Source of the DNA: Spirochaetota bacterium
GTDB lineage: Bacteria > Spirochaetota > UBA4802 > UBA5550
NCBI GenBank assembly: GCA_963663865.1
Contig: OY760686.1
Location: 1,984,001 to 2,048,000 of the forward strand
Length of the DNA stretch: 64,000 nucleotides
Direction of reading: 5' to 3'
The notes beneath the pieces were generated by a model, which had not been told where the DNA came from, made no database searches, and saw nothing but the letters and a program-made list of their open reading frames with translations. Below are positions 492 to 43,690 of the stretch, piece after piece (the stretch's first letter is position 1; every line of letters starts with the position of its first letter). Both the position numbers and the translations under genes were made by a program.

Positions 492-510
492 TATGATGAT
501 TTATTACCTG

Positions 511-1521: not shown

Positions 1522-1606
1522 TCGACTATTATTTATTTAGAAGTACTAATCTTTATGATTTGTTTGTTGATTATTTATAAACATGTATAATTGTTTATAA
1601 ATAAAT

Positions 1607-2686: not shown

Positions 2687-2701
2687 TACAGTGCCTATTC
2701 T

Positions 2702-4087
2702 TTAATTTGTTTTCGATTTTTTATTTGTTAGAATTCTAAAGACAATAACAGCTTGTAACAATAAATGCACAATATATGCAAACAAATTAGCTAATGCTAA
2801 TCCTTTAGCCCCTTTATCAATGTATTTATAAGTTGTAATGAACAAAACAATCGCCCATTGCATGTTTAATGCAGCTCCCCACCACATTTTATTCATACTA
2901 GCAATTGCCTGACCCAAAAGACTTACAGATGAATTTATTAAAGTGGAAATAACAATAATTATTAATACAATTTTTCCCTCAAGAAAATCTTTTCCGTACG
3001 ATTCCATAATAAAGCCTGACAATGGAATAATAGTTAGTGTAATAACAGTCGAAATAATAAAATTTAAAAAAAGATTTATACTAAGAACTTTTTTGAACTT
3101 ATATAGACTTTTTTCTGAGTACAAATTTGATAAAATTGGCAATATCATCGAACCTAGTATTGCGGGAATAAAAAGAATGGCACTTCTCCATTGATTAGCT
3201 GCATTTATCAATGCCATTTCAGAGTATCCATTTGGCATTTTTACCAACATTGAATAGCATATCCAATTTACTGGGGCGACCAAAACTGAACTTAATGTAG
3301 CAGGAATACTAAATTTCCAAATAATTGATATTTGATCGAAACAATGCTTATAATTTTTCTTGATGGAATTTTGATCTAAAACATTTTTTATGGCTAATGA
3401 ATTTAGGGATATATTAACAATAGAGTTAATAATTGTACCAACTACTGCCCCCTCTAGATGGAAAAAAAAGCCACCTATTGTCAAAGCCGGCAATGATACT
3501 AACGCTGAAATAACGTTAATTTGTGCAATTTTTTTAAAACTTTCAAAACCCGATAAAATACCAATTTGAATACCGACAATTGCATTTGCAAACAACAACA
3601 AAGAACTAATTTTTAAAGTATTAGATAATTCTGACGCTGACAAACTACTTGTTGCAATTTCATTAGAAAATATAAATAAAACTAATGAGATTAAAAAGGC
3701 TGATGATATTGCTATAACATCTGATAAAGCTACAATTTTCCCAACTTTAACTTTATCAATATTTCTATATTCGGAGATATATTTTGTTGCTGTCATCCCC
3801 AATCCAAAACCAGCAAAGACTCCAAACATCCCTACAGTACTTTGTATCATACCAAATTGACCGTAAGTTGTCTTACCAAGTAATCTAGCAATAATAATGG
3901 ATGTTAATAAGACAAATCCTTTTGAAACAACTGCTCCTAATAAAGACCAAAATGACCCATGAAAAACACGATATGCTAGTGGACTGCTTCTGATTTTTTT
4001 TTCCCAGATATTTATAGCTGGGGAAGGAATGATTGTTTTTATTTTTCTCTTTATATATTTATTCATTAAAACATAAACTAACAACAT
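2702..4087 (-). CDS. wzx: O-unit flippase Wzx
   Basis: About 12 TM helices with IIARLLG..YG and GLG.TATKYISEY; TAATG overlap with the wecB stop. Confidence 0.85.
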   Translation of the reverse strand: MLLVYVLMNKYIKRKIKTIIPSPAINIWEKKIRSSPLAYRVFHGSFWSLLGAVVSKGFVLLTSIIIARLLGKTTYGQFGMIQSTVGMFGVFAGFGLGMTATKYISEYRNIDKVKVGKIVALSDVIAISSAFLISLVLFIFSNEIATSSLSASELSNTLKISSLLLFANAIVGIQIGILSGFESFKKIAQINVISALVSLPALTIGGFFFHLEGAVVGTIINSIVNISLNSLAIKNVLDQNSIKKNYKHCFDQISIIWKFSIPATLSSVLVAPVNWICYSMLVKMPNGYSEMALINAANQWRSAILFIPAILGSMILPILSNLYSEKSLYKFKKVLSINLFLNFIISTVITLTIIPLSGFIMESYGKDFLEGKIVLIIIVISTLINSSVSLLGQAIASMNKMWWGAALNMQWAIVLFITTYKYIDKGAKGLALANLFAYIVHLLLQAVIVFRILTNKKSKTN

Positions 4088-5208
4088 TAAAATTGCAATT
4101 CACGAAAGATCTTCACAATATTTTTGCTTGTTTCTCCATCACCATAAGGATTTACTGCATTAGCCATTTTTATATATTCATCATTTTCGTTTAACAGCAA
4201 ATTCGCTGTATTAACTATTTTATTCTTGTCTGTTCCAACCAGAATGGCAGTTCCAGCCTCCACCCCCTCCTGTCTCTCAGTAACATCTCGCATGACAAGG
4301 ACGGGCTTACCTAGTGACGGAGCTTCTTCCTGAATTCCACCCGAGTCTGTGAGTACCATATATGATTTGCTCATCAGCCATATCAAGTATGGATAGTCAA
4401 GCGGACTTACAAGATGTACTCTTTCAACATTTTTCAATATTCTGTTTACCGGTTCTCTCACATTAGGGTTTAAGTGAACTGGATAAACAATTTGAACATC
4501 TTTATTTCGCTCAACAATCTCAGTAATTGCATTACAAATATTTTCAAAAGCATCTCCAAAACTTTCTCGCCTATGACCAGTAACTAATATTATTTTTTTA
4601 TTACAATCAAGAAAATCAAAACGTTTAAAATACTCTTCTTCGCCTTGTTTTTTTATCAAACTCAAACCGAGATATAGAGCGTCTATAACAGTATTGCCAA
4701 CATTATAAATGTTTTTGAAAATACCCTCCGATTTTAAATTTTCAACTGCTCGACTGGTTGGTGCAAAGTGGTAGTCTGTTATATGTGCTGTAAGTTTTCT
4801 ATTTCCTTCTTCTGGAAAAGGTGAATATAAATCTCCACTTCTAAGACCTGCTTCAAGATGAGCAATTTTTACTTTTTTATAAAAAGCTGCCAGAGCACCT
4901 GCTAAAACTGTAGTTGTATCACCTTGCACAAAAACCAAGTCAGGTTTACATTCTTCAATAACACTTTCTAAACCTTTTAGTACGTTAGCCGTAACATCAA
5001 AAAGTGACTGACCAGGTTTCATCACGTTTAGATCGTAATCTGGAATTATTTGAAAAAAGGACAAAACCTGATCGAGCATTTCCCGATGCTGGGCTGTTAC
5101 ACAGATAATTATTTCAAAATAATCATTATTTTTTTTAAATTCTTTAACAAGGGGCGCCATTTTAATAGCTTCAGGACGAGTTCCAAATATAAATAGGATT
5201 TTTTTCAT
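4087..5208 (-). CDS. wecB: UDP-N-acetylglucosamine 2-epimerase (non-hydrolysing)
   Basis: GTRPEAIKMAP, VQGDTTT, HLEAGLRS, TDSGGIQEEAP and NPYGDG motifs. Confidence 0.97.
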   Translation of the reverse strand: MKKILFIFGTRPEAIKMAPLVKEFKKNNDYFEIIICVTAQHREMLDQVLSFFQIIPDYDLNVMKPGQSLFDVTANVLKGLESVIEECKPDLVFVQGDTTTVLAGALAAFYKKVKIAHLEAGLRSGDLYSPFPEEGNRKLTAHITDYHFAPTSRAVENLKSEGIFKNIYNVGNTVIDALYLGLSLIKKQGEEEYFKRFDFLDCNKKIILVTGHRRESFGDAFENICNAITEIVERNKDVQIVYPVHLNPNVREPVNRILKNVERVHLVSPLDYPYLIWLMSKSYMVLTDSGGIQEEAPSLGKPVLVMRDVTERQEGVEAGTAILVGTDKNKIVNTANLLLNENDEYIKMANAVNPYGDGETSKNIVKIFRELQF

Positions 5209-5227
5209 TATTTAACCTTAGATAAAT

Positions 5228-5884
5228 TCAAATTTTGTCGAGATTTTCAAAAACATACATTATTTGTTTAGGCTGTCGAAGTATTTTTTTGCCAATAAAT
5301 GGGCGAATTATATTTTTAATTAATATTTGCTTAATATATGTTAAACCGTAATAGGACCATCCATGGCATGAATACACCACGACTTGACTCTTATTAAGCT
5401 TTGGAAAAGAAGTCATTGTATATGTATTGATATGTTCAGAATTATATTGCAGGTTTTCACGATAAGGTACGATGACAATTAGTTGCTTACACTTCTTCAA
5501 TAATGATTCGGCAATAACTTGATCATTAGACAAGTGTTCAAAAACATTTGAAGCTATAATAATATCTACAGAAGGAACATCTGCGCATTCCCCTTGATAG
5601 AATTCTGCAATTTCTCCATATTTTTCCCTGCACATATCTACTGCAGAAGAAGAAATATCCATCCCTTTCAAAGAAGCTAAAGGAAAAGCATTATGATAAC
5701 AAGGAATGCTATCGCCAAGGGCACATCCAAAATCCATAATTGTTCCTGTGAAATCTTTACTAATAGGCAAATATTTTATATATCCAAGTGCAAACGATTT
5801 AGTTTGATAGCGTCCTTTCTTGTTTTCCCAATCACCAGAGCTGAATCTGTTATCCCAGTAATCTTTTGTATTAACATTACTCAT
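5228..5884 (-). CDS. Class I SAM-dependent methyltransferase, probably modifying the polysaccharide
   Basis: YWDNRF, IMDFGCALG (motif I), GMDIS and SNVFEHL. Start moved to ATG 5884, which has a purine-rich RBS. Confidence 0.8.
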   Translation of the reverse strand: MSNVNTKDYWDNRFSSGDWENKKGRYQTKSFALGYIKYLPISKDFTGTIMDFGCALGDSIPCYHNAFPLASLKGMDISSSAVDMCREKYGEIAEFYQGECADVPSVDIIIASNVFEHLSNDQVIAESLLKKCKQLIVIVPYRENLQYNSEHINTYTMTSFPKLNKSQVVVYSCHGWSYYGLTYIKQILIKNIIRPFIGKKILRQPKQIMYVFENLDKI

Positions 5885-6148
5885 CAAATATACCCTCTCC
5901 ATCTTCCATCTTTTCTTGCAACACACATCTCTGTTAGTAATCCAAATTGCCGCGTAGTTTTACAAACATCACATACTTCTTCAATATCAGAAGAGTGAAA
6001 GATCAGCTAATTATTTTTTAAATATCCATACGAAGAATTTAAGAGAATATAAGCTGATTGTGTGACTAAACTTCTTTCTAAAATGCTTCTATAACAATCT
6101 ATTTTTATTCTTTTGAAATATTTTTTATTCAATTACTCTTATTATTCT

Positions 6149-6450
6149 TCACATCCTCACCCCGGTTCTCAAAGCTTCCTTAACGACCAGTCTTGAATCG
6201 GCTTCAGCGTCAGGTGTTACAACCATATCAATCTTCTGGTCGCCTATGGCAAACTGAATTTTTGTAATAGCCTTTACTATACGGGATTCTGCTTCGATAC
6301 CGCTGTATGGCGCTTTCACAAGCAGATCAATGTCGCCGCCGTTTTTTGTGTCATCAACTCGTAAACCGAAAAGATAAAGCTCAACATCGCTACCAAACTG
6401 CGATAAAACAATCTCTTTAGTTTTAGTTTTTGAAAATCAGTCAGGCGCAT
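6149..6450 (-). pseudogene. Frameshifted minimal nucleotidyltransferase (MNT/MntA-like) pseudogene
   Basis: ATG at 6450 reads MRLTDFQK, then a frame change gives KEIVLSQFGSDVELYLFGLRVDDTKNGGDIDLLV...GDQKIDMV...EALRTGVRM*. The span is 302 bp (not a multiple of 3) and the GS motif reads GL. Confidence 0.8.
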
Positions 6451-6623
6451 TTCTTACCTTTAAAGACTCATCCCAACAATATTAGAATGATAAACTCTTA
6501 GATTATTTTTTCTACATCAATATTACCGGCAATTTTTTCAGCAATACGCCCGGCTTCTCTGTTCACTTCTGGAATCATTTATCAACCTCATATAACGAAA
6601 TGACCAAAAGAGTCACACTCCGC

Positions 6624-8138
6624 CTACTTCGCTATCAGCCCAAAAAGTCCGCCCCTCTTCCGGTTCCTTCTTACATTAAGCTCACGCATCTTTTTCGCTG
6701 CTGTACTTATGGATATTATCGATCCTGTGTTTCTCTTCACCTCGGCGCTGACTGACTTGAGGTACATGGAGAGAACCCTTCTCCTTATAAAGCCGGCATT
6801 TGTGAAGTGGCACCAGAAACCGTACTGATACTTTCCCTGTCTGCTTGTAAGGTAAAGCACCTCGCCTTTGAGGTTCACTGTCTTTTTCCCTCCAAGCCTG
6901 AGCTTAAGCTGGAGGCTATCGCCCTCCTGTACAGGCACATTGGTGAAAAACTGTAATCCATCAGGCGAAATTTCCTGCAGACCGCCTTTGATGTGAAGCT
7001 TGCGGTCATTGAGGGTCCTGAATTCGACGGCCACTCCCCGCGGATAGTACCTCACAGTCTGCTCCCACCATCTGATTCTGGGATCAATAATGGCCGCCAA
7101 ACGCTCAGTCCTGTCCTCCATCACTGAGAGCCAGTAGAGAAAATGCACCTGAACAACGAGCACCGTTAAAAGAAGCATTGACCTGCTGTAAAAGCCTCCA
7201 TGCCAGTACAGGGCACCAAAGCTTCCAAACAATATAGCGATCGGGAAAACCGTGGCAAGTATCATAGTGTTCGAATAACCGGCTTCGAGCAGCTTGTGGT
7301 GTATGTGGTTTCTGTCGGCCTCAAATATCGGCCTCTTCATCTGAAGCCTTCTTATTATTACCCTTCCAACGTCAATAAAGGGGAACAGGAATATCATCAC
7401 TGGAACTATAATGGTCCGCGATCCCGCGTCTGAACCGCTTGTCAGCGGAATAATCACAGAGACAATGTAGCCAATCGAATAAGCGCCCGCGTCACCGAGG
7501 AATATCCTTGCGGGAGGCCTGTTGAAAACGAAAAATCCCAGTATGCTTCCCAGCAGTATTAAGGATGATGTCATCAGAAATGGATTGCCGCTCATGGCGC
7601 CGACAACAGCAAAAAACACAAGGCCGATCATTGTGAGCCCGGATGAGAGCCCGTCAAGACCGTCAATCAGGTTTACCGCGTTCATGAACGCGAGTATCCA
7701 TATGACCGTAACTGCGATATCAATTACCTCAGAGACTCCCTGTATGGAACTGATATAGTGGCCCGCGTGTATTCTAAGGCCTGAGGATACTGCAAGTGCT
7801 GCCGCAAGAATCTGAACGGCAAGCTTATAGCGTGCCCTTATGGGCTTAACGTCGTCAACAAGTCCCATGGCGAAGACCGTGAGGAGTCCCGCGGCAAGCA
7901 GAGGCAGTGACACGTTGAAGCTGTAATACCTGCCGAGGGTGAACGTTCCAACCGTGACGAAAGCGGTAATAACGCCCACACCTCCGAGACGGCCTATCTT
8001 GCCGGTGTGTATCTTTCTCTCATCGGGGTTGTCATAGAGAGACATAACCTCACAGAGCCTGATCATCAGATAGACTATCGCTGAAGAGAGAGCGAAAGCT
8101 GAAGTAAAGATTAAAGCATTAGTTAGAATAGTATCCAT
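6624..8138 (-). CDS. wecA: Undecaprenyl-phosphate HexNAc-1-phosphate transferase (WecA/TagO, MraY-like) with C-terminal PilZ-like domain
   Basis: RKIH..RLGG, GLVDD, NAVNLIDGLDGL, IFLGDAGA and ADRNHIHH motifs. The C-terminal extension has RYYPR and EISPDG. Confidence 0.88.
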   Translation of the reverse strand: MDTILTNALIFTSAFALSSAIVYLMIRLCEVMSLYDNPDERKIHTGKIGRLGGVGVITAFVTVGTFTLGRYYSFNVSLPLLAAGLLTVFAMGLVDDVKPIRARYKLAVQILAAALAVSSGLRIHAGHYISSIQGVSEVIDIAVTVIWILAFMNAVNLIDGLDGLSSGLTMIGLVFFAVVGAMSGNPFLMTSSLILLGSILGFFVFNRPPARIFLGDAGAYSIGYIVSVIIPLTSGSDAGSRTIIVPVMIFLFPFIDVGRVIIRRLQMKRPIFEADRNHIHHKLLEAGYSNTMILATVFPIAILFGSFGALYWHGGFYSRSMLLLTVLVVQVHFLYWLSVMEDRTERLAAIIDPRIRWWEQTVRYYPRGVAVEFRTLNDRKLHIKGGLQEISPDGLQFFTNVPVQEGDSLQLKLRLGGKKTVNLKGEVLYLTSRQGKYQYGFWCHFTNAGFIRRRVLSMYLKSVSAEVKRNTGSIISISTAAKKMRELNVRRNRKRGGLFGLIAK

Positions 8139-8139
8139 T

Positions 8140-9333
8140 TCAGAATCTCCTCAATGCGTTACGCTGTTTAGCCGCTTCCATCCACTCCATGAAAAACACA
8201 ATGAAGACTGATATAAACAACCCCGCGAACATCGCCACAACAGCCATCATTGCCCTTTTGGGACTCACCTTCTTGTCCGGCACAATAGCCGGGTCAATCA
8301 CCTCAACATATATCTCCGCCTTCGCTTCATCGAGCTTTGCCTTCTCGTAGAGCTTGACAATGGTCTCGTACACAGCCTGCGATACCTTGACGCCGGCCAT
8401 AAGACCAGTGTACTCAACCATTTTATCAGGAGCGTTCCCGAGAGACGGGAGGGCCCCCGTTTCCTTTCCGCTTCCTTCTATCGAACTAAGGTTTTTATTA
8501 ATCTCCTTTAGCTGTTTTTTCATAGCTAGAAGCCTCGGATTGTCAGGCGACAGAGCCGATTCAAGCCCCTGGACCTGCATTTCAAGCGACATCTTCTGGC
8601 TCATTAGAGCTCCATAAAGCGTCATTGTTCCTTTTGCCTGAACCTCCGGGTCAAGGAGTTTGCTTTTTTTCTGGAAAGCCGCAAGGCTCTTTGTCTCTCC
8701 CCTGAAGCGCTTCTTTTCAGCAATAAGCTGGTTTTCGTAAAACAGCCTGTTTTTCTTTTCGATTGTCAGGGCCTTCTCTTCCAGAAAGTTCTGAAGAACC
8801 TCGGTATACCTGTTTACAACAGCAGCTGCCAACTCCGGGCTTTCCCATTTGAATCCAAGAGTTATCACTTTTGTCTTCTTGTCATACTCTGCCGAAAAGA
8901 GCTCATCGAATTCCTCTATTGTGTACTGTATCCTGTCCCTCTTTTTTGGGATATCGTCCACGATTATCTTATCAAGCTCGAACTCCCTGACAATCTGTTC
9001 CTTGACCGTCCTGCTTTTCGCCAGAACCATTATCTTGTCGGTCTGGTCCTTGGCGCCGCCCATGTCAAGTCCGGCAAGCGCCGCCATACCCGCCAAATCT
9101 CCCAGCCCTCCTCCAGATGATGATGAAACAGGAAGCAGTGTGACCTCTGCCAGATACTTATTGCTTATGAACAGCGATATAACTATCGTTATTACCACTA
9201 CCGAAGCGGTGAAAATTGAGACAAACTTCTTCCTGGACCATATCGTGTTCCAGAGTTCGAGAAGGTCTATCTCGTCATCGCCGCTTACCGACTGCGAATA
9301 TATCTCTGTATTTTTTTTATTCATATTTGCCAT
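8140..9333 (-). CDS. Polysaccharide co-polymerase / chain-length determinant (Wzz/GumC-like, no kinase domain)
   Basis: DEIDLLEL..IW N-terminus, two TM helices, coiled-coil periplasmic region, VIDPA.VP.K..SPKR motif. Confidence 0.88.
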   Translation of the reverse strand: MANMNKKNTEIYSQSVSGDDEIDLLELWNTIWSRKKFVSIFTASVVVITIVISLFISNKYLAEVTLLPVSSSSGGGLGDLAGMAALAGLDMGGAKDQTDKIMVLAKSRTVKEQIVREFELDKIIVDDIPKKRDRIQYTIEEFDELFSAEYDKKTKVITLGFKWESPELAAAVVNRYTEVLQNFLEEKALTIEKKNRLFYENQLIAEKKRFRGETKSLAAFQKKSKLLDPEVQAKGTMTLYGALMSQKMSLEMQVQGLESALSPDNPRLLAMKKQLKEINKNLSSIEGSGKETGALPSLGNAPDKMVEYTGLMAGVKVSQAVYETIVKLYEKAKLDEAKAEIYVEVIDPAIVPDKKVSPKRAMMAVVAMFAGLFISVFIVFFMEWMEAAKQRNALRRF

Positions 9334-9352
9334 TTTCTACCTGATCCCGACC

Positions 9353-12169
9353 TTAAAGGCTCAAAGCCATAACCAGGGTTGATACAGACTGGAATATAAT
9401 CTGCGTAATGTCCCTGAACATAGGCCTCCACATAACCGGTATATTTATCTCAAAAGGAACTACAACCGCGTCGCCTTCTTCAAGCTCGAGATCGTCCAGG
9501 TCCCTGAAGAAGTTCTCATAGCTGTCACGTGATATAATCTTTCCGTTAGCCTTGATGACATATATATTGTCAAGATCAGAATTCTTGGCGGGCCCTCCGA
9601 CATCATCAAGATAATCTTCAACCGTCTTGTTCTGGACATGCGGCATGGATATCTGGTTGTAAACATTTCCGAGCACGAGCACATAGTTCGGCTTTGCCGG
9701 AACGAAGATATAGTCGTCCTGCACAAGCTCAATATTGTCGTCACTGCTCTTAAGGCTGTCTATTGTTGCCGGTATGTCAAGCGCCAGCCTTCCCAGAGCC
9801 ATCTTTGACTTTTTCTTTATCAGGGCGAGCATTTGCTGCTGTTGCCTCATTACAATAGTTATCGCGGACTTTTCCTCGTCCGACCCTCCCGCAGCTGCAA
9901 GGCCCGAAGAGCTCTTATTGACGTACTCCTCCATGGCGACCATGGATATGTTTATCTGGTTCATCTGAAGACGCTGCGCGTTTCTTCTGGTAAAAATTAG
10001 GCCCCTCGGGTAAGCTGTGTCCGTGTAGCCTCCGGCAGCTTCAATAATGTCAGAGAGCTTCATCCCCGGCTTATACTCATAGACACCCGGCTTGTTAACC
10101 TCACCTATAAGAGTTATAGTCTTGTTCTTTTCGTTGGACTCGGTCTTGCGTATTACAATTTTATCGCCCGGCCGGAGCTTTAGGTTGGCTTTTTCGTCTC
10201 CCCTGACAAGAAGGTCATGCAGGTATACAGTCCTTCTTGTCGTATCCTTTTCCTTTTTACCGAGTTTCATAATCTTCATTTTTTCAGATTCGGTAAGCTT
10301 AACGTTAGGATCAGCTTTCTGCTCATCACGCTTAAACAGGCCCTTTAACTCAGGATTGCTTTTGAGAAACAAATCAATATTTTCATCAGAGGCCTTTTCA
10401 GCATCGACCTCCTTTTCATCTTCTTTAAAAAGCTCATCTGCCGGCTCAATGTCTTTGACCTCAGCCGGATCGATTTCGCCTGTTTTCAGCTCTTTTGAGT
10501 AAATCTCAGCTTTTAAAATTGACGCAGATCCTTTGAGACGGACCTGTTTGAGCGCGTCTAACATCTTAATCCCTTCAAAGTAAGGGACAAGTTTTGACTC
10601 TTCAACCTGCCCTGAAACATGCATGGGCTCTTCAAGCCATCTAGGGTAGAAAGTAATCTGGTCTCTTTTCTCCAGAACGATGTCGGATTTACCGTTTAAT
10701 ATATTCTCAGGAGCAAAGGAGATCACAGTCGTTGTATGCTTTCTCCTTACGTCGCCAATTCTTGCATCCGTGTCAGGCAGCAGCTGGGCCTTCTTCATTA
10801 CTTCGCTGAGCTTAAGCCCCTCTTTCCAGGAGTACTTGCCGGGATACCTTATATGCCCGGCGACTTCGATTTCGTTTTCAATTACGGAGTTTATCTGCTC
10901 TACTCCGATAAAATCGCCATCATCCATCACCTTTTGGAGAAACTCAGTTTTGTCCAACGAGCCCTCATATATATAGACTTTATCGTTTTCATATCGATAG
11001 TGTTTAATTCCCGGATTATAAGCTGAAAAAGAAGCACCTCCAGCGTAGTCGATTGCGCTTTGCACGGTATCACCATTCGAGATTTCGTAAATAGCGGGTC
11101 TCTTTACATCACCCGTGACTGCGGCAGTCTTTCCTATCTCATTGACAAGAACGCTGTCTCCCTCCCTTACTGTCACATCTGCCGGTTTTCCTGAAACAAG
11201 GAAGTCATAGAGATCGACTCTGATTTTCTTCTGCTTTCCGGATTCCATACGGGTAATTTCAATATTTCTGAGGCTGCCATTCTTCGCGACTCCGCCTGCC
11301 TGGACAAGTACATCAATAATCGAGTATGTTCCGAGTGACTGAACCACACCCGGTTTTTCAACAAACCCTGACACGTAAACGGGAAACTGTCTGAGCTGAC
11401 CCAGCGTGAGAGCTATCTCAAAACGCTTGTATTTTTTTGCGAGTGAGTTGTGAACGATCTTCTTTATTTTGTTTATTTCAAGGCCCCAGACATAGAAAAC
11501 ACCGAGGTTAGGTACAAAAATCTTCCCGTCCCTGTCTACTGTTATAGAATAGAAGCCGTTAAGCCCGAGAATATCAACCGGATCACCCCAGAAGTACAGA
11601 AAAAGGGTGTCACCGGGTCCGACAGCGTATTTGTCGCCTACAGGGAGAAAGTTTTCAGCTGACCTGACTTTGAAAAAATCGTAGCCAAATTGACGAAGCT
11701 TTTTGTCTTCTTTGATCATGTACTCGTCTTCTTCTTCGATCTTTTCAGCTGCCCTTTTTTCAGGCAATCTGCTATTATATACTTTCTCTATTGATGAAAG
11801 CGGCTCTTTTGAATATAACCTGTATAGTTCGTCATCTGTCAGCAGTGACTTTTGATCTTTTGCCTGCGAACTGCTTTTATCAGTTGAGGGACGTGTATTT
11901 ATTATTGAATCAGCCTTCGACGGCGTTTTACGCTGATTAAAAAGATTGGTTTGAGAGCCGTCGCTGCTGTAGTGAACACCGCTTCCTTGAAGCAGCAGCT
12001 CCTGCTGCGACATCACCTGCGCCCCGGCTCCGCTGCCGATGAGAATGGCAAAAGCTGTAAGCATCAGATACGCTGTCAGCTTGAACTTAGTCAGGCCTGT
12101 TTTTAGAAACCGTTTGAGAGAATTCATCATTAAAGTTATTCCATTTATTAAATGCTTAGTATTTATCAA
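9353..12169 (-). CDS. Polysaccharide export protein with multiple SLBB domains (Wza/KpsD-like)
   Basis: FGYDFF, Y.VGPGD..., VDRDGKIFVP.LG and repeated G.V.KPG.Y SLBB motifs. The exact start is uncertain. Confidence 0.88.
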   Translation of the reverse strand: MINTKHLINGITLMMNSLKRFLKTGLTKFKLTAYLMLTAFAILIGSGAGAQVMSQQELLLQGSGVHYSSDGSQTNLFNQRKTPSKADSIINTRPSTDKSSSQAKDQKSLLTDDELYRLYSKEPLSSIEKVYNSRLPEKRAAEKIEEEDEYMIKEDKKLRQFGYDFFKVRSAENFLPVGDKYAVGPGDTLFLYFWGDPVDILGLNGFYSITVDRDGKIFVPNLGVFYVWGLEINKIKKIVHNSLAKKYKRFEIALTLGQLRQFPVYVSGFVEKPGVVQSLGTYSIIDVLVQAGGVAKNGSLRNIEITRMESGKQKKIRVDLYDFLVSGKPADVTVREGDSVLVNEIGKTAAVTGDVKRPAIYEISNGDTVQSAIDYAGGASFSAYNPGIKHYRYENDKVYIYEGSLDKTEFLQKVMDDGDFIGVEQINSVIENEIEVAGHIRYPGKYSWKEGLKLSEVMKKAQLLPDTDARIGDVRRKHTTTVISFAPENILNGKSDIVLEKRDQITFYPRWLEEPMHVSGQVEESKLVPYFEGIKMLDALKQVRLKGSASILKAEIYSKELKTGEIDPAEVKDIEPADELFKEDEKEVDAEKASDENIDLFLKSNPELKGLFKRDEQKADPNVKLTESEKMKIMKLGKKEKDTTRRTVYLHDLLVRGDEKANLKLRPGDKIVIRKTESNEKNKTITLIGEVNKPGVYEYKPGMKLSDIIEAAGGYTDTAYPRGLIFTRRNAQRLQMNQINISMVAMEEYVNKSSSGLAAAGGSDEEKSAITIVMRQQQQMLALIKKKSKMALGRLALDIPATIDSLKSSDDNIELVQDDYIFVPAKPNYVLVLGNVYNQISMPHVQNKTVEDYLDDVGGPAKNSDLDNIYVIKANGKIISRDSYENFFRDLDDLELEEGDAVVVPFEINIPVMWRPMFRDITQIIFQSVSTLVMALSL

Positions 12170-18125: not shown

Positions 18126-19271
18126 TCATGCGTAACTTCCGGCAGCGTCCATAATTTCAATAGCGAAGCTGTGTATGCTGCTGACACGGTCTTTTTCGAC
18201 CCTGAATCCTATGGCACCCTCGTGTCCGCCGCCGTTATCTATGTCAAGCTTCTCAAGTATTCTTCTCAAGTCAAACACCTTGTAGTTCATGCTGCGCCTG
18301 ATTCTGAACTGTATGAGCCCGGTTGTCTCATCGGGGTCATAATAAGCGATGAGCCCGAGGCGTCCGCTTTTTTCCGCGAGGTCGTCAGCAAGCCCTCTCG
18401 CTACCGATACTACCGTATCGCTTCCGAATCGCCTAAAAATCTCGTTGGAGATATCTCTGTCAACTATAACGTAGGAAAAGAGACCATGCTTTCTTTCGTC
18501 CCTGCGCATCATCTCAGCGCACATGCTTTCTTCAGATGACAGCTTCTGTATCTCCGAAAACACCTCGGACATGTCAGAGAGGTTTGTCTTCTTTGTGGTC
18601 TCCATCCCCAGTATGCGGTTGTACATCTCGCTGAATATGCTGTAGTATATCCTTTCACGCCGTGATTTCAGAAAGCTTCCCATTTTTGAATCGCCGATAA
18701 TCCCTGTAAGTACCGCAAGAACGAAATTCCTTGTGAAGGGATTGATTCCGCCGGCGGCGTACCACGGCGAACTTTTCATCTTGAGAGCGAGGTATCCGAC
18801 AAGCTCGCTGGCCGACGATGCCTCTGTTACAAGGCTCAGCTCCGGATCTCCGATGTATTCGCTGTCCGCTCCGATATGGTGATCAATCTCGACTTTCACA
18901 ACGGATTCATCATTTAAGATAAGGTCAATCTCTGGAATTGTGTCAAGCATTGAGCCCTTTGGTGTGTCGCAGATGATGACAGCATCAATGTCATCCGGGA
19001 TTGCTGCGGAAGAGCTCACTATCGCTATTCCATTGTAGCGGCTGATGCTGACGAGGTATTCGAAATGCTCGTGTATGGCATGGCTCTGAAAAATGACAGC
19101 CGGCCTGTCTATCTTTGAGAGCAGTATTCCCGCCGCGACTGTCGAAGAGATGCAGTCCTCGTCCGGGCTCTTATGGCCGAGTATCAGAAAACTTTTCCTG
19201 GTATTGAATACGTCTATTATAGCCGAGGATATCGCCCTTTTCTGCATGATTGTCGGTATTGGTCTCTTCAC
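18126..19271 (-). CDS. DHH/DHHA1 phosphoesterase (NrnA/Pde2-like)
   Basis: GH.SPDEDC, ICD, IDHH, GIIGDS and GGGH..AIG motifs; GTG start with a GGGGAG RBS. Confidence 0.88.
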   Translation of the reverse strand: MKRPIPTIMQKRAISSAIIDVFNTRKSFLILGHKSPDEDCISSTVAAGILLSKIDRPAVIFQSHAIHEHFEYLVSISRYNGIAIVSSSAAIPDDIDAVIICDTPKGSMLDTIPEIDLILNDESVVKVEIDHHIGADSEYIGDPELSLVTEASSASELVGYLALKMKSSPWYAAGGINPFTRNFVLAVLTGIIGDSKMGSFLKSRRERIYYSIFSEMYNRILGMETTKKTNLSDMSEVFSEIQKLSSEESMCAEMMRRDERKHGLFSYVIVDRDISNEIFRRFGSDTVVSVARGLADDLAEKSGRLGLIAYYDPDETTGLIQFRIRRSMNYKVFDLRRILEKLDIDNGGGHEGAIGFRVEKDRVSSIHSFAIEIMDAAGSYA

Positions 19272-19296
19272 AGCGCTCCCCCGTAAAGGATGTTTT

Positions 19297-20268
19297 CTAA
19301 ACTCTGTAAACCCTGTTCTTGCCGCTGTTCTTTGCGTGGTACAGTGCGGTGTCGGCCTGCTTCATTAACGCGGCCGGATTGTCAGCGCTGTCAGGAAACA
19401 TGGCTATGCCCTGACTCAACGTTATGCTAAGGCCGCTCATCCCTGTAATCGGGGCAAGATCTATATCCTCTATCGTTCTGGTGCCCGTTTCCGCTACTCT
19501 CTCAGCATCACTGCCGCCTGTATCGGGCATTATAACACAGAACTCATCGCCACCGTATCTTATAAAGATATCTTTTTCACGGAGAACAGCGCTGTATTTT
19601 TCGACGAAAAGCCTGATAATGCCGTCCACAACCTCAGGCGGGCATGCCTCGGATATCTCCCTGAAGTTATCTATGTCCATCATGATAAGAGCAAGCTTTT
19701 TTCCTGAAGCGGACGCGGTCCTTATGCTGTCAGGCAGGGCTTCATCAAAATGTCTTCTGTTGTAGATGCCGGTCAAGTCATCGCGATACGCGCGCCTGCC
19801 CGCTCTTTCACCCCAGTTGATCATCTCGGCAAGGAATGAACTCTTCTCTTCGAGTCGCTCTGTAATGGTGTTCAGCATATTCAACATGAGAATACCGGCC
19901 GCCTTCGGGTGCTGATCGATGAATGACTTAAAGGATTCCCTGCTCACGGCAAGAAGGACGCTGTCTGCTTCGGAGACACAGCCGGCAGACCTTGGCTTGT
20001 TCTCAAACACTGCCATCTCGCCGAAAAAATCACCTTTCACGTAGGACCCCAGCGGCCTCTCGCCGGTTCCCGCGGCAGAAGAGCTTGATATTACACGTCC
20101 CTCAATAACCACATAGAGCTCATCGCCGGCCTCCCCTTCGCTGAAGATAAGCGTACCCTCAGAAACGGTCATGGGCCTGGCCAACGAGACGAAGACGTCA
20201 AGATCGTCAGCCGTGAAATGCCTGAAGAGACTGAGCTGCGTCAGCGTATTTCTGATCTGCTCATTCAT
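19297..20268 (-). CDS. cNMP-binding + GGDEF protein (GGDEF and DID intact, N..GH segment degenerate)
   Basis: FGEMAVFENKPRSA cNMP cassette; DDLTG, DIDNFREISE, REKD I-site and RYGGDEF. Start placed at ATG 20268. Confidence 0.9.
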   Translation of the reverse strand: MNEQIRNTLTQLSLFRHFTADDLDVFVSLARPMTVSEGTLIFSEGEAGDELYVVIEGRVISSSSAAGTGERPLGSYVKGDFFGEMAVFENKPRSAGCVSEADSVLLAVSRESFKSFIDQHPKAAGILMLNMLNTITERLEEKSSFLAEMINWGERAGRRAYRDDLTGIYNRRHFDEALPDSIRTASASGKKLALIMMDIDNFREISEACPPEVVDGIIRLFVEKYSAVLREKDIFIRYGGDEFCVIMPDTGGSDAERVAETGTRTIEDIDLAPITGMSGLSITLSQGIAMFPDSADNPAALMKQADTALYHAKNSGKNRVYRV

Positions 20269-21271
20269 ATTGAATAAATTCCGTGATATAATCGGTGTGG
20301 ATCCTTGCTCCTCCAGCCTTTCTTGCGGCATGCATAAGCTCATGGGCTTTTTTTATGAAACCGTTTTCGTCAACACTCTTTCCTGAAAAAGCGGATATAC
20401 CCATGCTCACCCTCATATTAAAACGCTCTCCGCCAAGAATGTCAGATATGTCCATGTTGTACAACATGCGGGCGATATCCTCCGCGTTTCCCAGGGCCTC
20501 TTCAAGCGCCACGGCGGGCATTATAACCGTGAACTCATCTCCTCTGTAACGGGCGGCGGTAAAACCGGGCGAAATCTTTTCACCAAGCAAACGCGCTATT
20601 CTGATGAGCGCGGCATCGCCCGCGTCGTGTCCGAAACTGTCGTTTACGTATTTAAAATCGTCGGGCTTTATCATCAGTACGGACACAGGAAGCGGCAGGG
20701 TGTGAGGCGCAGCGGCTACCTCGCTCTCAAGGTAAGTCCTGTTTAGAAGGCCGGTCAGCCTGTCGGTATAGAGCTTGCCTCTGAGCTCGTTAAGCCAGGG
20801 CGTCCTTTCAGCGATAAGGCCGTTGACGTCTCTTATGCGGCCGTCGAGTATCGATATGAAGTGGTAGAGTATCTCGGCGCATATTCCAGGATGCCGGTCA
20901 GAAATCTCCTCCAGAGTGACATCATCCCCCGGAAAATAGAGAAGAGACGTGTCTCTGACGGCCATGGCGCTCACCGAATGCCTGGAATCTCTAAAAAGAG
21001 AAAGCTCGCCAAAGCTCTCGCCTTTAATAAAGCCGGCAACATCGGCATGATCTTCGCCCTCGCCGCGCGAGAGGACAACCTCGCCGTCTTCTATAATATA
21101 CATAGAGGAGCTTCTTCCGCCTTCGCGGAAAAGGAGCTCGCCGGCCGGCAGGCGCCTCCTGGCCGTGTACTTTGCAACTATAGCAAGCTCTTCCGGGCCG
21201 AGGTTGGCAAAAAGCGGCAACGAGCCAAGAATGGACGCGATGTCCTCACTGCTGTTGTTCTGTGTTTTCAT
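20261..21271 (-). CDS. cNMP-binding + degenerate GGDEF (RGDEF) protein
   Basis: FGELSLF cNMP fold; DRLTG, KPDDFKYVNDSFGHDAGD and RYRGDEF. Confidence 0.88.
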   Translation of the reverse strand: MKTQNNSSEDIASILGSLPLFANLGPEELAIVAKYTARRRLPAGELLFREGGRSSSMYIIEDGEVVLSRGEGEDHADVAGFIKGESFGELSLFRDSRHSVSAMAVRDTSLLYFPGDDVTLEEISDRHPGICAEILYHFISILDGRIRDVNGLIAERTPWLNELRGKLYTDRLTGLLNRTYLESEVAAAPHTLPLPVSVLMIKPDDFKYVNDSFGHDAGDAALIRIARLLGEKISPGFTAARYRGDEFTVIMPAVALEEALGNAEDIARMLYNMDISDILGGERFNMRVSMGISAFSGKSVDENGFIKKAHELMHAARKAGGARIHTDYITEFIQYE

Positions 21272-22586
21272 TCACCATCGATACCGGCTGCCCCGTCGCC
21301 TCAAGAACGCTGTGCCAGAAGGGCGATATCGGATTTAAAAGCTTTCTCTGCGATATTGCCATCTCAATCGGGATGTGTATGTACATGTTGTTGAACTGAC
21401 CGATTACGCAGTCGGTTTTACCGGCCATTCCGGCATGCAGGGCGTACTGCCCAAGCAGCGCGCAGTAAACAGCGTCGTTCGGGACGGCTCTGGAGCTGCG
21501 TATGATGTAGCTCGGATCGATATACTTCAGATTTACAGGGTTCCCCCTGGCGCTGAAGTAGCTCCTTATTTTGTCTCTCAGATATATTCCGATATCGCCC
21601 AGAATAACGTTGCCTGATGCGTCCTTTACTGGGACTCCATTCTCGTCGACAAGATGTTCCTGCCCGGCGCCCTCGGCTACGCAGATTACAGCGTGGCCTC
21701 TGTGCATCATTCTTCTCTCGAGATGGGCTAAAAAGCCGTTTTCTCCTTCCATGTCAAACTTCACTTCTGGAACGAGTACAAAGTTGACATCGTTAAGAGC
21801 GAGAGCAGCGTTAGCCGCAATGAATCCTGAGTGACGGCCCATGAGCTTGACAAGACCTATACCGTTAGGAGCCCCCTTTGCCTCGACATGCGCGGCGTAT
21901 ATGGAATCGGCCGCCTTTGAAAAGGCCGTTTCGAATCCGAAGGACCTCTGTATATAGCTGATATCGTTGTCTATTGTTTTCGGTATTCCGATGACGGACA
22001 GGTTCAGTCCCTTTTTCTGTGCGAGCTCTGATATTTTGTGAGCGCCTCTCAGAGTGCCGTCTCCTCCGATTGTAAAGAGGACATTGATCTTCAGATTCTC
22101 AAGGGTGTTGACCAGAATATCCATGTTTTCCGTACCGCCCCGTGAAGAGCCGAGAATGGTTCCCCCGTTGAGGTGAATCTCGTCAACGAGATGCGGTGTA
22201 AGCTCAATAGGATGATATCCCATTGAAGGATTGAGTCCGTTATAGCCGAAGCGTATTCCCAGGATTGAATGCACTCCGTATCGGTAATAGGCTGACATGA
22301 CTATTGAACGGATAACATCGTTCAATCCGGGGCAAAGGCCGCCGCAGGTAACAATGGCGCATCTGGTCTCCGACGGCTTGAAGTGGAGATGTTGCCTCGG
22401 CCCGGCAAGCTCGAAGGTAAGATCATTTTTAGAACTTTTTTTAACAGGGGCAGCGTCCATGTGCTTAAATATGTCGTAACGCATTCTGGTGCTCTCAGGC
22501 ACATAGAACGAGTCCTGCATCGGCATTTTCATTACGTCCGTTGCCCTGAATGCGCATTTGCCGATAGTCTTTATGTTAAAATCCAT
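21246..22586 (-). CDS. pfkA: ATP-dependent 6-phosphofructokinase (long, group X-like)
   Basis: TCGGLCPGLN, GGTILGSSRG, GGDGT, PKTIDND and MGR motifs. The GGDG Gly suggests ATP rather than PPi. Confidence 0.92.
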   Translation of the reverse strand: MDFNIKTIGKCAFRATDVMKMPMQDSFYVPESTRMRYDIFKHMDAAPVKKSSKNDLTFELAGPRQHLHFKPSETRCAIVTCGGLCPGLNDVIRSIVMSAYYRYGVHSILGIRFGYNGLNPSMGYHPIELTPHLVDEIHLNGGTILGSSRGGTENMDILVNTLENLKINVLFTIGGDGTLRGAHKISELAQKKGLNLSVIGIPKTIDNDISYIQRSFGFETAFSKAADSIYAAHVEAKGAPNGIGLVKLMGRHSGFIAANAALALNDVNFVLVPEVKFDMEGENGFLAHLERRMMHRGHAVICVAEGAGQEHLVDENGVPVKDASGNVILGDIGIYLRDKIRSYFSARGNPVNLKYIDPSYIIRSSRAVPNDAVYCALLGQYALHAGMAGKTDCVIGQFNNMYIHIPIEMAISQRKLLNPISPFWHSVLEATGQPVSMVNENTEQQQ

Positions 22587-24295: not shown

Positions 24296-24970
24296 ATGGA
24301 CTTGAAGATTCAGGAAGTAGCGGGTCTACTCAGCGCGCCTGAAAAAACTATTAAGCGCTGGATAAAAAAAGAAGGGATGCCTGCGTACAGAATCAAGAAG
24401 CAGCTGTATTTCAACAGATCTGAGGCTGCGGAATGGCTTCTTGAGAACAACAAGGCTGTCCAGGCTGACATTGAGAAGCTCTTTGCCGCTGAAAAGCCGG
24501 TTTCAATACATGACCTTGTGATAAGAGGTGGGATATTCCGCAACATAGGCGGCAACAGCCCTTCAACGGTTATAGACCACCTTGTCCGGGAAATCAACAT
24601 CCCCGGAGAAACCTCAAGAGAAGAGATACGAAAAACGCTCCTTCAACGCGAAGAGATGATGTCCACTGCTGTAGGAAACGGCATCGCAATTCCTCACCCC
24701 CGCAATCCGGTAATATCAAACATAGGCGATGAGGCAGTATCAATCGCTTTCCTGGCAGAACCTGCCGACTTTCACGCCCTCGACGGGAAGCCTGTCCACA
24801 CACTGTTTGCGGTTATATCATCCAACGCAAGACGGCACCTGGAAATCTTAGCCAGGCTGTCATATCTGTGCCGCAGGCCTGATTTTATAGCATCTCTTGA
24901 GGAAAGACATGGCGACTCGGCCCTCCTAAAAAGCATCGAACTAATTGAAAAGGAAATGGTTTCAGCGTAA
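24296..24970 (+). CDS. Excisionase-type HTH fused to PTS EIIA (Fru/Ntr type)
   Basis: EVA.LL...EKTI.RW...MPAY HTH; RE..MSTAVGNGIAIPHPR phospho-His motif; HLEILA.LS. Confidence 0.9.
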   Translation: MDLKIQEVAGLLSAPEKTIKRWIKKEGMPAYRIKKQLYFNRSEAAEWLLENNKAVQADIEKLFAAEKPVSIHDLVIRGGIFRNIGGNSPSTVIDHLVREINIPGETSREEIRKTLLQREEMMSTAVGNGIAIPHPRNPVISNIGDEAVSIAFLAEPADFHALDGKPVHTLFAVISSNARRHLEILARLSYLCRRPDFIASLEERHGDSALLKSIELIEKEMVSA

Positions 24971-43508: not shown

Positions 43509-43690
43509 TTTATTACTCCTTAAAACATCATTAAATCTCATGGCTTTCATCATAAAAACTGAACCGGGTCGGGTATTTGTCAACAATATATTCTGAAAGC
43601 AGCGTTAAGGCGTCATTGAAATAAAAAATGATGGACTTGTTTTATACGGAGCTGTTAGAATATTCTGAAATAATTATCTGTGAGGCTGCC

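Follow-up and report, generated by a model that had tools for sequence, protein, structure and literature searches.

A tandem pair of cNMP-linked GGDEF proteins, one with a degenerate metal site, and a neighboring DHH/DHHA1 enzyme in Spirochaetota: a candidate enzyme-pseudoenzyme heterodimer

The window analyzed here is a stretch of 64,000 nucleotides from a Spirochaetota bacterium (contig OY760686.1 of assembly GCA_963663865.1, positions 1,984,001-2,048,000), and all coordinates below count from its first letter. The open-reading-frame list places the genes and features of interest on the minus strand as follows:

21246..22586, minus strand: ATP-dependent 6-phosphofructokinase, PFK (Pfam; 26-bp overlap with the start of B)
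20261..21271, minus strand: gene B, 336 aa, cNMP_binding and degenerate GGDEF domains, a putative "KP-type" pseudo-cyclase (ORF, Pfam, PleD alignment, family signature)
20918..21160, minus strand: cNMP-binding domain of B, residues 38-118 (Pfam; phosphate-binding-cassette counts)
20771..20902, minus strand: linker (signaling) helix of B, residues 124-167, predicted interface with A (complex prediction)
20309..20770, minus strand: GGDEF domain of B, residues 168-321, with RGDEF, without RxxD and with Gly at the PleD R446 position (Pfam, PleD and family alignments)
20651..20668, minus strand: residues 202-207 of B, K-P-D-D-F-K, Lys-Pro replacing the metal-site Asp-Ile of PleD (PleD and family alignments)
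19297..20268, minus strand: gene A, 323 aa, cNMP_binding and GGDEF domains, catalytic residues intact (ORF, Pfam, PleD alignment)
19909..20169, minus strand: cNMP-binding domain of A, residues 34-120, canonical FGE...PRSA cassette (Pfam; cassette alignment)
19789..19908, minus strand: linker (signaling) helix of A, residues 121-160, predicted interface with B (complex prediction)
19312..19791, minus strand: GGDEF domain of A, residues 160-319, RxxD I-site five residues before GGDEF (Pfam, PleD and family alignments)
19624..19677, minus strand: residues 198-215 of A, base and phosphate loop, which retains the metal Asp and the last Asp and carries Ser for Asn, Pro-Pro for Gly-His and Val for Gly (PleD and family alignments)
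18126..19271, minus strand: putative DHH/DHHA1 phosphodiesterase, 381 aa, GTG start, of a divergent single-copy subfamily found mainly in spirochaetes (ORF, Pfam, motifs)

The stop codon of B overlaps the ATG of A by 8 bp, and a gap of 25 bp, within which lies a purine-rich stretch, separates the stop of A from the GTG start of the DHH gene; a recheck of the reading frames left these junctions and the coordinates as an earlier, sequence-only reading had given them. The longest possible frame of gene A extends to 20343, and the start at 20268 is backed by homologue alignments. The overlap between PFK and B, absent from that reading, places PFK probably on the same transcript as B; among the loci examined, PFK adjoins the B-A pair only in L002 and (PFK-like) in L061, and it is context outside the conserved module. 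The genome of the window also encodes eight EAL proteins and, besides the DHH gene of the locus, a canonical NrnA/DhhP-like gene.

Protein A scores 71.1 bits for cNMP_binding and 128.6 bits for GGDEF (cut-off 23.8). In HMMER alignments to PleD chains, on which all motif readings are based, it keeps the first (metal) Asp, GGDEF, the last Asp (D344), Lys442 and RxxD, and has Ser at the base-contact Asn (PleD N335), Pro-Pro at Gly-His, and at position 446 a Lys instead of Arg, as do 6/60 A-types. The earlier motif reading of A (K>R, N>S, D>E and GH>PP, with the Asp, GGDEF and RxxD retained) was reproduced exactly. By its GGDEF score, metal Asp, GGDEF, D344 and Lys442, A would be classed as an active diguanylate cyclase, with Ser in place of the expected base-contact Asn. 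Among the A-types of 60 aligned pairs, D327 and K442 are present in 60/60, GGDEF in 59-60/60 and R446 in 54/60, and the base pocket is looser: N335 in 55/60 (Ser, Gly or Asp in the other five, the window included), H340 in 16/60 and D344 in 48/60, with Asn in the remaining 12. Judging from these alignments, the A family keeps all catalytic residues while its base pocket varies. The Asn-to-Ser and Gly-His-to-Pro-Pro changes, which had been read as reciprocal to those of B, proved not to be conserved, the Asn being retained as counted above and the Gly in most. The nearest relative of window A has 39% identity in the collections searched (41% within alignment A2), and none closer than about 40% was found there.

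Protein B scores 58.5 bits for cNMP_binding and 110.9 bits for GGDEF. It has Lys-Pro for Asp-Ile at the site that we take to be PleD D327/I328, reads RGDEF, has no RxxD, and keeps the Lys, Asn-Asp, Gly-His and Gly-Asp, all of which agrees with what had been noted before from the letters alone (Asp to Lys, RGDEF, no I-site, and K, ND, GH and GD kept). Gly at the phosphate-binding Arg446 position and Arg for Lys442 had escaped that reading. The D-x-L-T-G turn is retained by both A and B. In the B-types of the same set, K327, P328, D329, F331, K332, N335, D336, G339, H340, G343 and D344 each occur in 60/60, so that N335 and D344, which contact the guanine, are invariant together with the Gly-His loop; E371 is kept in 58/60, R446 has become Gly in 58/60, and the first GGDEF position varies (the four commonest residues being R37, M13, K3 and E3 of 60). 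The KPDxFK signature is carried by 50/50 database homologues of B, and among the best 147 representatives the KP-type GGDEF occurs in 57, only in cNMP-linked architecture; the carriers measure about 320-350 aa, except for fragments and for longer proteins of 503-681 aa that include two B-A fusions. An invariance of this kind is far beyond chance, and the B substitutions are conserved and not the product of random decay. With the metal Asp, GG[DE]EF and Arg446 all absent, B is probably not an active diguanylate cyclase; it appears to be a catalytically incompetent paralogue of A, whose Mg2+ and triphosphate ligands are lost (Lys-Pro for Asp-Ile, Gly for Arg446). The third GGDEF residue, Asn in about half of the family (position 370: N31/D29), may be counted among the lost ligands, and all guanine and ribose contacts appear to be under strict selection. 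In the cNMP cassette of B, the Gly is kept in 60/60 and the Glu in 58/60, and the Arg (R40/60) is displaced by a column in the protein of the window, so that cNMP binding by B is less certain than by A.

The B-A pair is ancient and spread over Spirochaetota. It occurs in tandem in 40/40 relatives searched and in 73/301 sampled genomes of the phylum, gene A lies directly downstream of 62/77 B genes (the window left out of the count), and, of 51 A genes whose flank is long enough, 23 are followed next by the DHH gene. No A adjoins ten B genes even though their flanks are long enough, and nine of these ten make up a separate clade. In the tree, A and B are two separate clades with parallel topologies, and both window proteins sit on long terminal branches. 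Fusions in a single reading frame were found for B-A (n = 13: 11/12 candidate loci plus L061 and L064) and for A-DHH (n = 14, several on complete chromosomes). The functional link of A, B and DHH that had been proposed from this one locus is borne out by the synteny, the fusions and the parallel divergence of the clades, and it is probable that A and B, often with an adjoining or fused DHH enzyme, act as one signaling unit. The predicted fold of one natural B-A fusion (pTM 0.45) gave no usable domain arrangement.

The DHH protein scores 43.5 bits for DHH (cut-off 28.1) and 25.7 bits for DHHA1, just below the cut-off of 25.9, and its fold match spans both domains. In an alignment of 24 sequences, H33, D37, D39, D102, D130, H131, H132 and G347-H350 are invariant and D194 is kept in at least 90%, so that the catalytic motifs DxD, D, DHH, D and GGGH are all present. 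Its nearest folds are TM1595, Borrelia DhhP, the GdpP catalytic domain and NrnA/Pde2, some of them with structures that contain a linear dinucleotide or a mononucleotide as ligand, and the best reading of the protein is that of a putative dinucleotide phosphodiesterase. The family is single-copy and present in 88/301 sampled Spirochaetota genomes; it is unlinked to the B-A pair in families f2, f5, f6, f7 and f21, and 25 genomes, one of just 1.1 Mb, encode it but lack the pair. A substrate for it must therefore be present even where A and B are absent, and the idea that it is a dedicated eraser for the pair does not hold.

Modeling of A with B, which had been proposed as a check, gave a complex prediction score of 0.75, as against 0.00 for the best of three controls; the mark is reached by 58/80 solved complexes and by 2/110 mismatched pairs. 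The model runs share at least 93% of their contacts, the partner pLDDT is at least 84, and the interface consists of the linker helices in parallel register. From this model we infer that A and B may form a heterodimer. The score is for A:B only, and it may merely reflect the likeness to solved cNMP/GGDEF dimers together with the paralogy of A and B. The B-A fusions are equally compatible with A-A' plus B-B' dimerization. DHH/DHHA1 enzymes are usually dimers, and A-DHH fusions would therefore favor A:A pairing.

The window contains a single copy of an ancient module found throughout Spirochaetota. The best explanation, which we put forward tentatively as having a little less than an even chance, is that A and B form an enzyme-pseudoenzyme heterodimer with one catalytic center, accompanied by a dinucleotide phosphodiesterase. 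A feasible model would be a cNMP-gated heterodimer with the C-terminal helices of the two cNMP domains as its predicted interface. B would hold a guanine nucleotide without metal and present its 3'-OH, which would attack Mg-GTP on A to yield pppGpG; this would then either be released or bind again in the opposite orientation and be cyclized to c-di-GMP, and the dinucleotide would be hydrolyzed by the DHH/DHHA1 enzyme that adjoins A here and is fused to it elsewhere. Gene order, conservation, fusions and residue states are what was observed; that B binds a nucleotide, the reaction steps and what the DHH enzyme cleaves are proposed in addition to these. According to portions of Hallberg 2019 (PMC6456294), recognition of the base falls to the Asn on the sugar face and to residue 344 on the Watson-Crick face, the third GGDEF residue holds Mg, and the Glu at the fourth deprotonates the 3'-OH of the GTP of the other subunit. 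The family-wide pattern resembles a division of labor, in which base and ribose contacts are all that B retains and the metal and triphosphate machinery is all that A keeps strictly.

The heterodimer has to be weighed against independent homodimers, a reading that is somewhat doubtful and yet a serious one. A2 would be an ordinary cNMP-activated diguanylate cyclase making c-di-GMP; B2, or B bound to A via the helices only, would tune A without catalysis of its own, either by sensing GTP or another guanine nucleotide or as a decoy; and the DHH enzyme would be a nearby housekeeping dinucleotidase clearing pGpG. The full catalytic set of A, the eight EAL proteins available for canonical turnover, the single-copy and frequently unlinked DHH gene, the clade of B genes without an adjoining A, and the precedents of GTP-sensing degenerate GGDEF domains (CC_3396 and FimX, in the portions of their descriptions available) all speak for it. 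However, a mere decoy would not need guanine contacts in 60/60 and the cross-subunit Glu in 58/60, the losses of B are limited to residues for the electrophile role, and the strict B-then-A order, the translational coupling and the B-A fusions imply a 1:1 stoichiometry. That the two are tandem paralogues without joint function, kept adjacent by history and with window A and/or B decaying, would fit the long terminal branches and nearest relatives only about 40% identical; it is highly improbable in view of the intact reading frames, the high domain scores, the invariant signature of B, and synteny and fusions across the phylum.

In its strong form, the sequence-only reading went further than the heterodimer favored here: an obligate A:B complex would make a non-canonical product, either released linear pppGpG/pGpG or mixed G-N via the altered pocket of A, that would itself be the signal, with the DHH enzyme as its eraser. 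Such a product is possible, and the reading as a whole is unlikely. Spelled out as an obligate asymmetric cyclase, in which a metal-free, strictly guanine-specific site of B would give the 3'-OH, the Mg site of A, with its relaxed base pocket, the attacked NTP, the product (pppGpG, pGpG or pppGpA) would be a cNMP-gated messenger and the DHH enzyme would remove it, it has similarly poor prospects. The relaxed base pocket of the A-types (D344 to Asn and N335 changed, as counted above) argues for it; in Hypr enzymes, purine specificity is determined by residue 344 (PMC6456294, in part), and pppGpG is a real intermediate released by some variants (PMC6005682, in part). The A-DHH fusions, and the ligands (linear dinucleotide or mononucleotide) present in some of the folds nearest to DHH, point the same way. 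On the other hand, the substitutions of window A are not conserved and lie on a long branch, the Ser that defines Hypr enzymes is absent from A and B, the DHH family also occurs in genomes without the pair, and we know of no receptor for such a linear or mixed product. Of that interpretation, the gene linkage, the predicted A:B complex and the conserved B substitutions stand, whereas the conserved A substitutions and the dedicated eraser have fallen away.

The textbook GGDEF cyclase is a symmetric homodimer. A pair of an active and a metal-site-dead member that spans the phylum would be new for the family on three counts: the dead partner has the better conserved nucleotide pocket, fusions go both ways (B-A and A-DHH), and both chains carry a cNMP input; no published description of such an A-B pair was found in the literature. 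Among GGDEF enzymes, the pair would correspond to the heterodimeric cyclases of class III, and it would allow a direct test of how a single-center GGDEF dimer handles pppGpG. All named database homologues bear the label diguanylate cyclase or GGDEF protein, and spirochaete censuses of c-di-GMP enzymes, oral Treponema (L071) included, therefore probably give too high a number of active cyclases. A divergent single-copy spirochaete DHH/DHHA1 enzyme would moreover be tied to c-di-GMP-type signaling.

Among known systems, A and B match the GGDEF domain of the PleD/WspR diguanylate cyclases end to end, with PleD as the best solved relative, and A shares with them the metal Asp, GGDEF, Lys442 and the RxxD inhibition site. 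Unlike these symmetric homodimers, the present pair joins an active and an inactive paralogue that are regularly inherited together; window A carries Ser at the base-contact Asn, and in B the metal Asp, the first Gly of GGDEF and Arg446 are missing. CC_3396/PdeA of Caulobacter and FimX of Pseudomonas are described, in the available text, as having a non-catalytic GGDEF domain that binds guanine nucleotide and regulates a partner catalytic domain; that domain sits in cis with EAL, whereas the partner of B is another GGDEF domain, and the Lys-Pro signature is confined to the B family among the best 147 representatives, with no mention of it found in the available text on CC_3396/FimX. In Hypr GGDEF enzymes (GacA, 3',3'-cGAMP), a base-pocket change alters the product and catalysis depends on cross-subunit residues, but these are homodimers defined in the relevant portions of PMC6456294 by Ser at PleD-344, where window A and B have Asp and 12/60 A-types Asn; by that definition, the Asp rules out a Hypr cGAMP synthase identity for A or B. 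With Bd1971 (Bdellovibrio, cNMP-EAL) and Lcd1 (Leptospira, GAF-GGDEF), A and B share the input of cAMP/cGMP to c-di-GMP turnover, and dimerization there goes through the helical linker of the cNMP domain; Bd1971 is, however, a phosphodiesterase and Lcd1 senses cAMP via GAF, and no characterized cNMP_binding-GGDEF cyclase was found in the available sections of the review concerned (PMC8846402).

The architecture of GdpP/YybT, as partly documented, is PAS, degenerate GGDEF and DHH/DHHA1; GGDEF followed by DHH/DHHA1 in one chain recurs in the 14 A-DHH fusions, and the GdpP catalytic domain is among the closest folds and sequence matches to the DHH enzyme. The separate genes in the window, a cNMP_binding sensor instead of PAS, and the catalytically intact GGDEF of the fused relatives exclude a GdpP/YybT identity. 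The fold (Foldseek E ~1e-17 to 1e-13) and catalytic motifs of the DHH enzyme are common to TM1595 (T. maritima), Borrelia DhhP, NrnA/Pde2 and Rv2837c; it shares only 14-20% identity with these stand-alone enzymes and has about 50 additional residues. In the class III cyclases (mammalian adenylyl cyclase C1/C2, soluble guanylyl cyclase), paralogous domains form one active site and one regulatory pseudo-site; they belong to a different domain family, and both subunits contribute to each of their sites, whereas every GGDEF domain binds a nucleotide of its own.

Four minus-strand genes of the window follow one another head to tail in the order PFK, B, A and DHH/DHHA1:

21246-22586, minus strand, ORF of a phosphofructokinase (PFK)
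20261-21271, minus strand, ORF of protein B, with the Pfam domains cNMP_binding and GGDEF
19297-20268, minus strand, ORF of protein A, with the Pfam domains cNMP_binding and GGDEF
18126-19271, minus strand, ORF of the DHH/DHHA1 protein, with Pfam DHH, and with DHHA1 just below threshold

The PFK gene overlaps the start of B by 26 bp, the stop of B overlaps the ATG of A by 8 bp, and between the stop of A and the GTG start of the DHH gene are 25 bp that include a purine-rich stretch; the latter two junctions had been described from the sequence alone, and the re-read coordinates agree with that description. NCBIfam returned only generic GGDEF and cyclase matches, far under any equivalog cut-off. 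A scan for promoters and terminators was uninformative, because its counts equalled those of shuffled sequence. A PFK gene is also located directly upstream of the pair at locus L002 (56-1456), and at locus L061 the B-A fusion is followed by a PFK-like gene (5453-6634); this adjacency may be a sporadic tie to glycolysis, possibly one that arose by chance.

Residue correspondences were taken from HMMER alignments of A and B with solved PleD chains, which reproduced the motifs reported for both proteins in the sequence-only reading. The PleD numbering is consistent with the alignment offsets and with published passages, one of which names R359/D362 and D344; the roles of D327, K442 and R446 are those ascribed to these residues in the literature. 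A retains the first, metal-binding Asp, the GGDEF motif, the last, base-reading Asp and Lys442, and has an RxxD exactly five residues N-terminal of GGDEF; it carries Ser at the base-contact Asn, Pro-Pro at Gly-His and Val at a Gly. In B, the metal Asp and its neighbor (PleD D327/I328) are replaced by Lys-Pro, the motif reads RGDEF and RxxD is absent, and Phe-Lys, Asn-Asp, Gly-His and Gly-Asp are retained. B also has Gly at the position of the phosphate-binding Arg446, a replacement that the earlier account did not include.

The asymmetry between an active and an inactive partner, as proposed for the window, holds throughout the family (60 paired A/B sequences). Among B-types, Lys327, Pro328, Asp329, Phe331, Lys332, Asn335, Asp336, Gly339, His340, Gly343 and Asp344 are each found in 60/60; in GGDEF itself, most B-types have another residue at the first Gly (the top four there are Arg in 37, Met in 13, Lys in 3 and Glu in 3), Asn (31) and Asp (29) share the third position, and Glu is kept at the fourth in 58/60; Arg446 has become Gly in 58/60. 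A-types keep Asp327 (60/60), GGDEF (59-60/60), Lys442 (60/60) and Arg446 (54/60); their base pocket is less strictly kept, with Asn335 in 55/60 (Ser in 3, Gly in 1, Asp in 1), Asp344 in 48 and His340 in 16 of the 60. Over an 18-residue loop, the frequency of the top residue averages 0.86 for B and 0.58 for A, so that the nucleotide pocket of the “dead” paralogue is the more conserved one. Judged from these columns, B is conserved and free of signs of decay, its losses being limited to metal and triphosphate ligands, and the oddities of A are local. The Ser and Pro-Pro of the window's A are not conserved among A-types, and this protein sits on a long terminal branch; a metagenome scan for closer relatives, which asked whether the Ser/Pro-Pro pocket is conserved, gave a best identity of 39%. 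Thus, of the reciprocal substitutions claimed for the two proteins, those of B are invariant in the key columns, whereas those of A are specific to its lineage. A separate observation is that Asp344, on the Watson-Crick face, is recurrently replaced by Asn in A-types (12/60; loci L004, L005, L026, L033, L039, L040, L048, L051, L055, L058, L075 and L078), at a position which determines the purine specificity of Hypr enzymes according to Hallberg et al. (2019; PMC6456294).

A search with protein B in 40 relatives found a B-like gene followed directly by an A-like gene in 40/40, many of them carrying two or three of these pairs. Scanning a single genome from each species yielded 68 full-length loci, all titled Spirochaetota and including Leptospirales, Spirochaetaceae, Marispirochaeta and Treponema (T. 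vincentii OMZ 806 among them); one duplicate locus was removed (L003 = L013), and a check revealed no other identical unit sequences. Outside the window, 62 of the 77 B-type units are followed directly downstream by an A-type on the same strand, 10 lack one although their flank reaches at least 1100 bp, and the flank is too short in 5. In a midpoint-rooted maximum-likelihood tree of 138 units, from which 5 fragments or outliers were excluded, the A-types separate from the B-types as two clades whose internal topologies are largely parallel, which suggests a single ancient duplication after which the two lines diverged together. Among 301 genomes sampled evenly from the phylum, 73 contained a full-length match (E <= 1e-45), mostly exactly two each. 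The B-types of L006, L011, L013, L015, L018, L022, L025, L030 and L076 form a monophyletic clade without an adjacent A; those of L013 and L018 combine a full GGDEF motif with Lys-Pro, and a DUF5698/DUF2179 protein, whose homology cluster covers five loci, is encoded directly upstream of the B-type in L018 and L022.

The Lys-Pro form of GGDEF is present in 50/50 database homologues of B and in 57 of 147 best representatives, which are of cNMP-GGDEF length, fragments, or 503-681 aa long (two being B-A fusions), and in 0/12 non-spirochaete loci from the one-genome-per-species scan; judging by these sequences, it appears confined to the B family. The recurring neighbors of the pair (ABC ATPases at 15 loci, histidine kinases at 9, MCPs at 5) belong to generic families and none holds a fixed position, so the survey of conserved neighbors provided no fourth component.

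Fusions connect all three proteins. B and A are joined in single ORFs of 660-683 aa in 11/12 candidate loci from relatives, in which a B-type N-terminal half (Lys-Pro, RGNEF) precedes an A-type C-terminal half (GGDEF); L061 and L064 are of like make-up, and two more representatives, of 650 and 681 aa, were found in a library of 1.84 billion proteins. A homologue of the window's DHH protein is encoded immediately downstream of A in 23 of the 51 A genes whose 3′ sequence extends for 1200 bp or more (28 when short flanks are included); together with the frequency of A downstream of B, this bears out the conservation of the triad across genomes. At 14 loci, several of them on complete chromosomes, A and DHH share one ORF of about 690-815 aa with no intervening stop, and at one of the 14, L066, the stop-to-stop frame extends to 1071 aa. 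The predicted fold of the L061 B-A fusion (13 sequences; mean pLDDT 80.2, pTM 0.45) is silent on the packing of the halves. The literature searched holds no account of the cNMP-GGDEF pair, of a Lys-Pro GGDEF or of a fusion of an active GGDEF to DHH, although supplementary domain censuses may list them.

In the account of Hallberg et al. (2019; PMC6456294), whose GacA residues were mapped by an offset of four to PleD N335, D344, E370 and E371, two residues read the base, the Asn on its sugar face and the one at position 344 on its Watson-Crick face, the third GGDEF residue holds Mg on the beta- and gamma-phosphate groups, and the Glu at the fourth position in one subunit removes the proton from the 3′-OH of the other subunit's GTP; a passage of PMC6005682 has the cyclase reaction proceed via a pppGpG intermediate. 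These published roles and the residues that B keeps suggest that B is equipped to hold a guanine nucleotide and to offer its 3′-OH. B would lack the means to activate the alpha-phosphate of its own nucleotide, which A keeps strictly. An A:B dimer would then have a single catalytic centre that could form one bond, giving pppGpG, and c-di-GMP would result only if this intermediate rebound the other way round. We therefore put forward, tentatively and with slightly less than even confidence, an enzyme-pseudoenzyme heterodimer with one catalytic centre that works with a dinucleotide phosphodiesterase.

Prediction of the A:B complex from custom 60-row alignments of A and B gave scores of 0.75, 0.75 and 0.77 (best of three controls, 0.00), above a pass mark met by 58/80 solved complexes and 2/110 mismatched pairs; at least 93% of contacts agree between runs, and partner pLDDT is at least 84. 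The predicted contact surface is formed by the helix that connects the cNMP domain to the GGDEF domain (A 121-160, B 124-167), the two helices lying in parallel register, and a helical linker mediates dimerization in cNMP-domain proteins according to part of a review (PMC8846402). Since A and B are paralogues and such domain dimers have been solved, the pass reflects likeness and not a preference for the heterodimer. It is possible, if somewhat doubtful, that A and B form separate homodimers and that B serves as a nucleotide sensor. The invariant residues of the linker helices differ (G153, R159 and T162 in A; N150 and Q166 in B), and the charges of the two helices showed no clear complementary pattern of hetero-specific pairs. 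A non-canonical product, as the sequence-only reading proposed, seems improbable to us; the pocket substitutions of the window's A are not conserved. The genome has a full canonical apparatus (29 GGDEF and 13 cNMP-binding matches, 8 EAL proteins and 5 class III cyclases), so that cNMP input and ordinary c-di-GMP turnover are both plausible. That the genes have no joint function is very hard to credit; the earlier interpretation stands in that the three genes are a real conserved unit, and falls in that the DHH enzyme is not exclusive to it.

One of the five class III nucleotidyl cyclases of the genome, a 687-aa CHASE2 protein encoded in the window (43628-45691, plus strand), is a possible source of the cNMP sensed by A and B. 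A low-GC (24-47%) exopolysaccharide cluster (1-12169, minus strand) encodes EpsG, flippase, UDP-GlcNAc 2-epimerase, methyltransferase, Wzz/GNVR and Poly_export/SLBB proteins; within it, at a distance of about 10 kb from the GGDEF pair, a glycosyltransferase of family 4 that carries a C-terminal PilZ domain (especially 6624-8138, minus strand) is likely a c-di-GMP-controlled initiating transferase. A 224-aa fusion of HTH_17 and PTS EIIA-2 (24296-24970, plus strand) has an unusual regulator architecture.

The catalytic motifs of the DHH protein are invariant or nearly so (24 homologues). Its AlphaFold model (pLDDT 84.8) is nearest to the folds of TM1595, Borrelia DhhP, the GdpP catalytic domain, NrnA/Pde2 and Rv2837c, at 14-20% identity, and its sequence matches solved structures weakly (1e-5). 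Atlas clusters of this subfamily are mostly labeled Spirochaetota; it is single-copy and occurs in 88 of the 301 sampled genomes, including 63 of the 73 with the pair, against about 21 expected by chance, an excess that kinship inflates. Read from coordinates, it adjoins the pair in only two families (f1, 15/16; f14, 9/11), and it is unlinked in f2, f5, f6, f7 and f21. Moreover, it occurs without the pair in 25 genomes, and the proposal of a dedicated eraser was accordingly abandoned. One of these genomes is complete and only 1.1 Mb in size (G133:C1:872838-873947, E 3e-110; no pair at E <= 1e-45), and there the enzyme must have a role independent of the pair. The window's genome encodes four DHH proteins, among which that of the operon has no paralogue; the fourth, of 386 aa (L187 714-1874; G000:C1 about 126713-127873), has no solved-structure match at E <= 0.001 and marginal similarity to the operon's protein. 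Orthology of the operon's protein to Borrelia DhhP/NrnA was rejected, because a separate 336-aa protein of the same genome matches those enzymes at 1e-31 to 1e-26, whereas the operon's protein matches DhhP at only 1e-5. The 336-aa protein is thus the canonical NrnA/DhhP-like enzyme of this genome, and the DHH protein of the operon is a different one.
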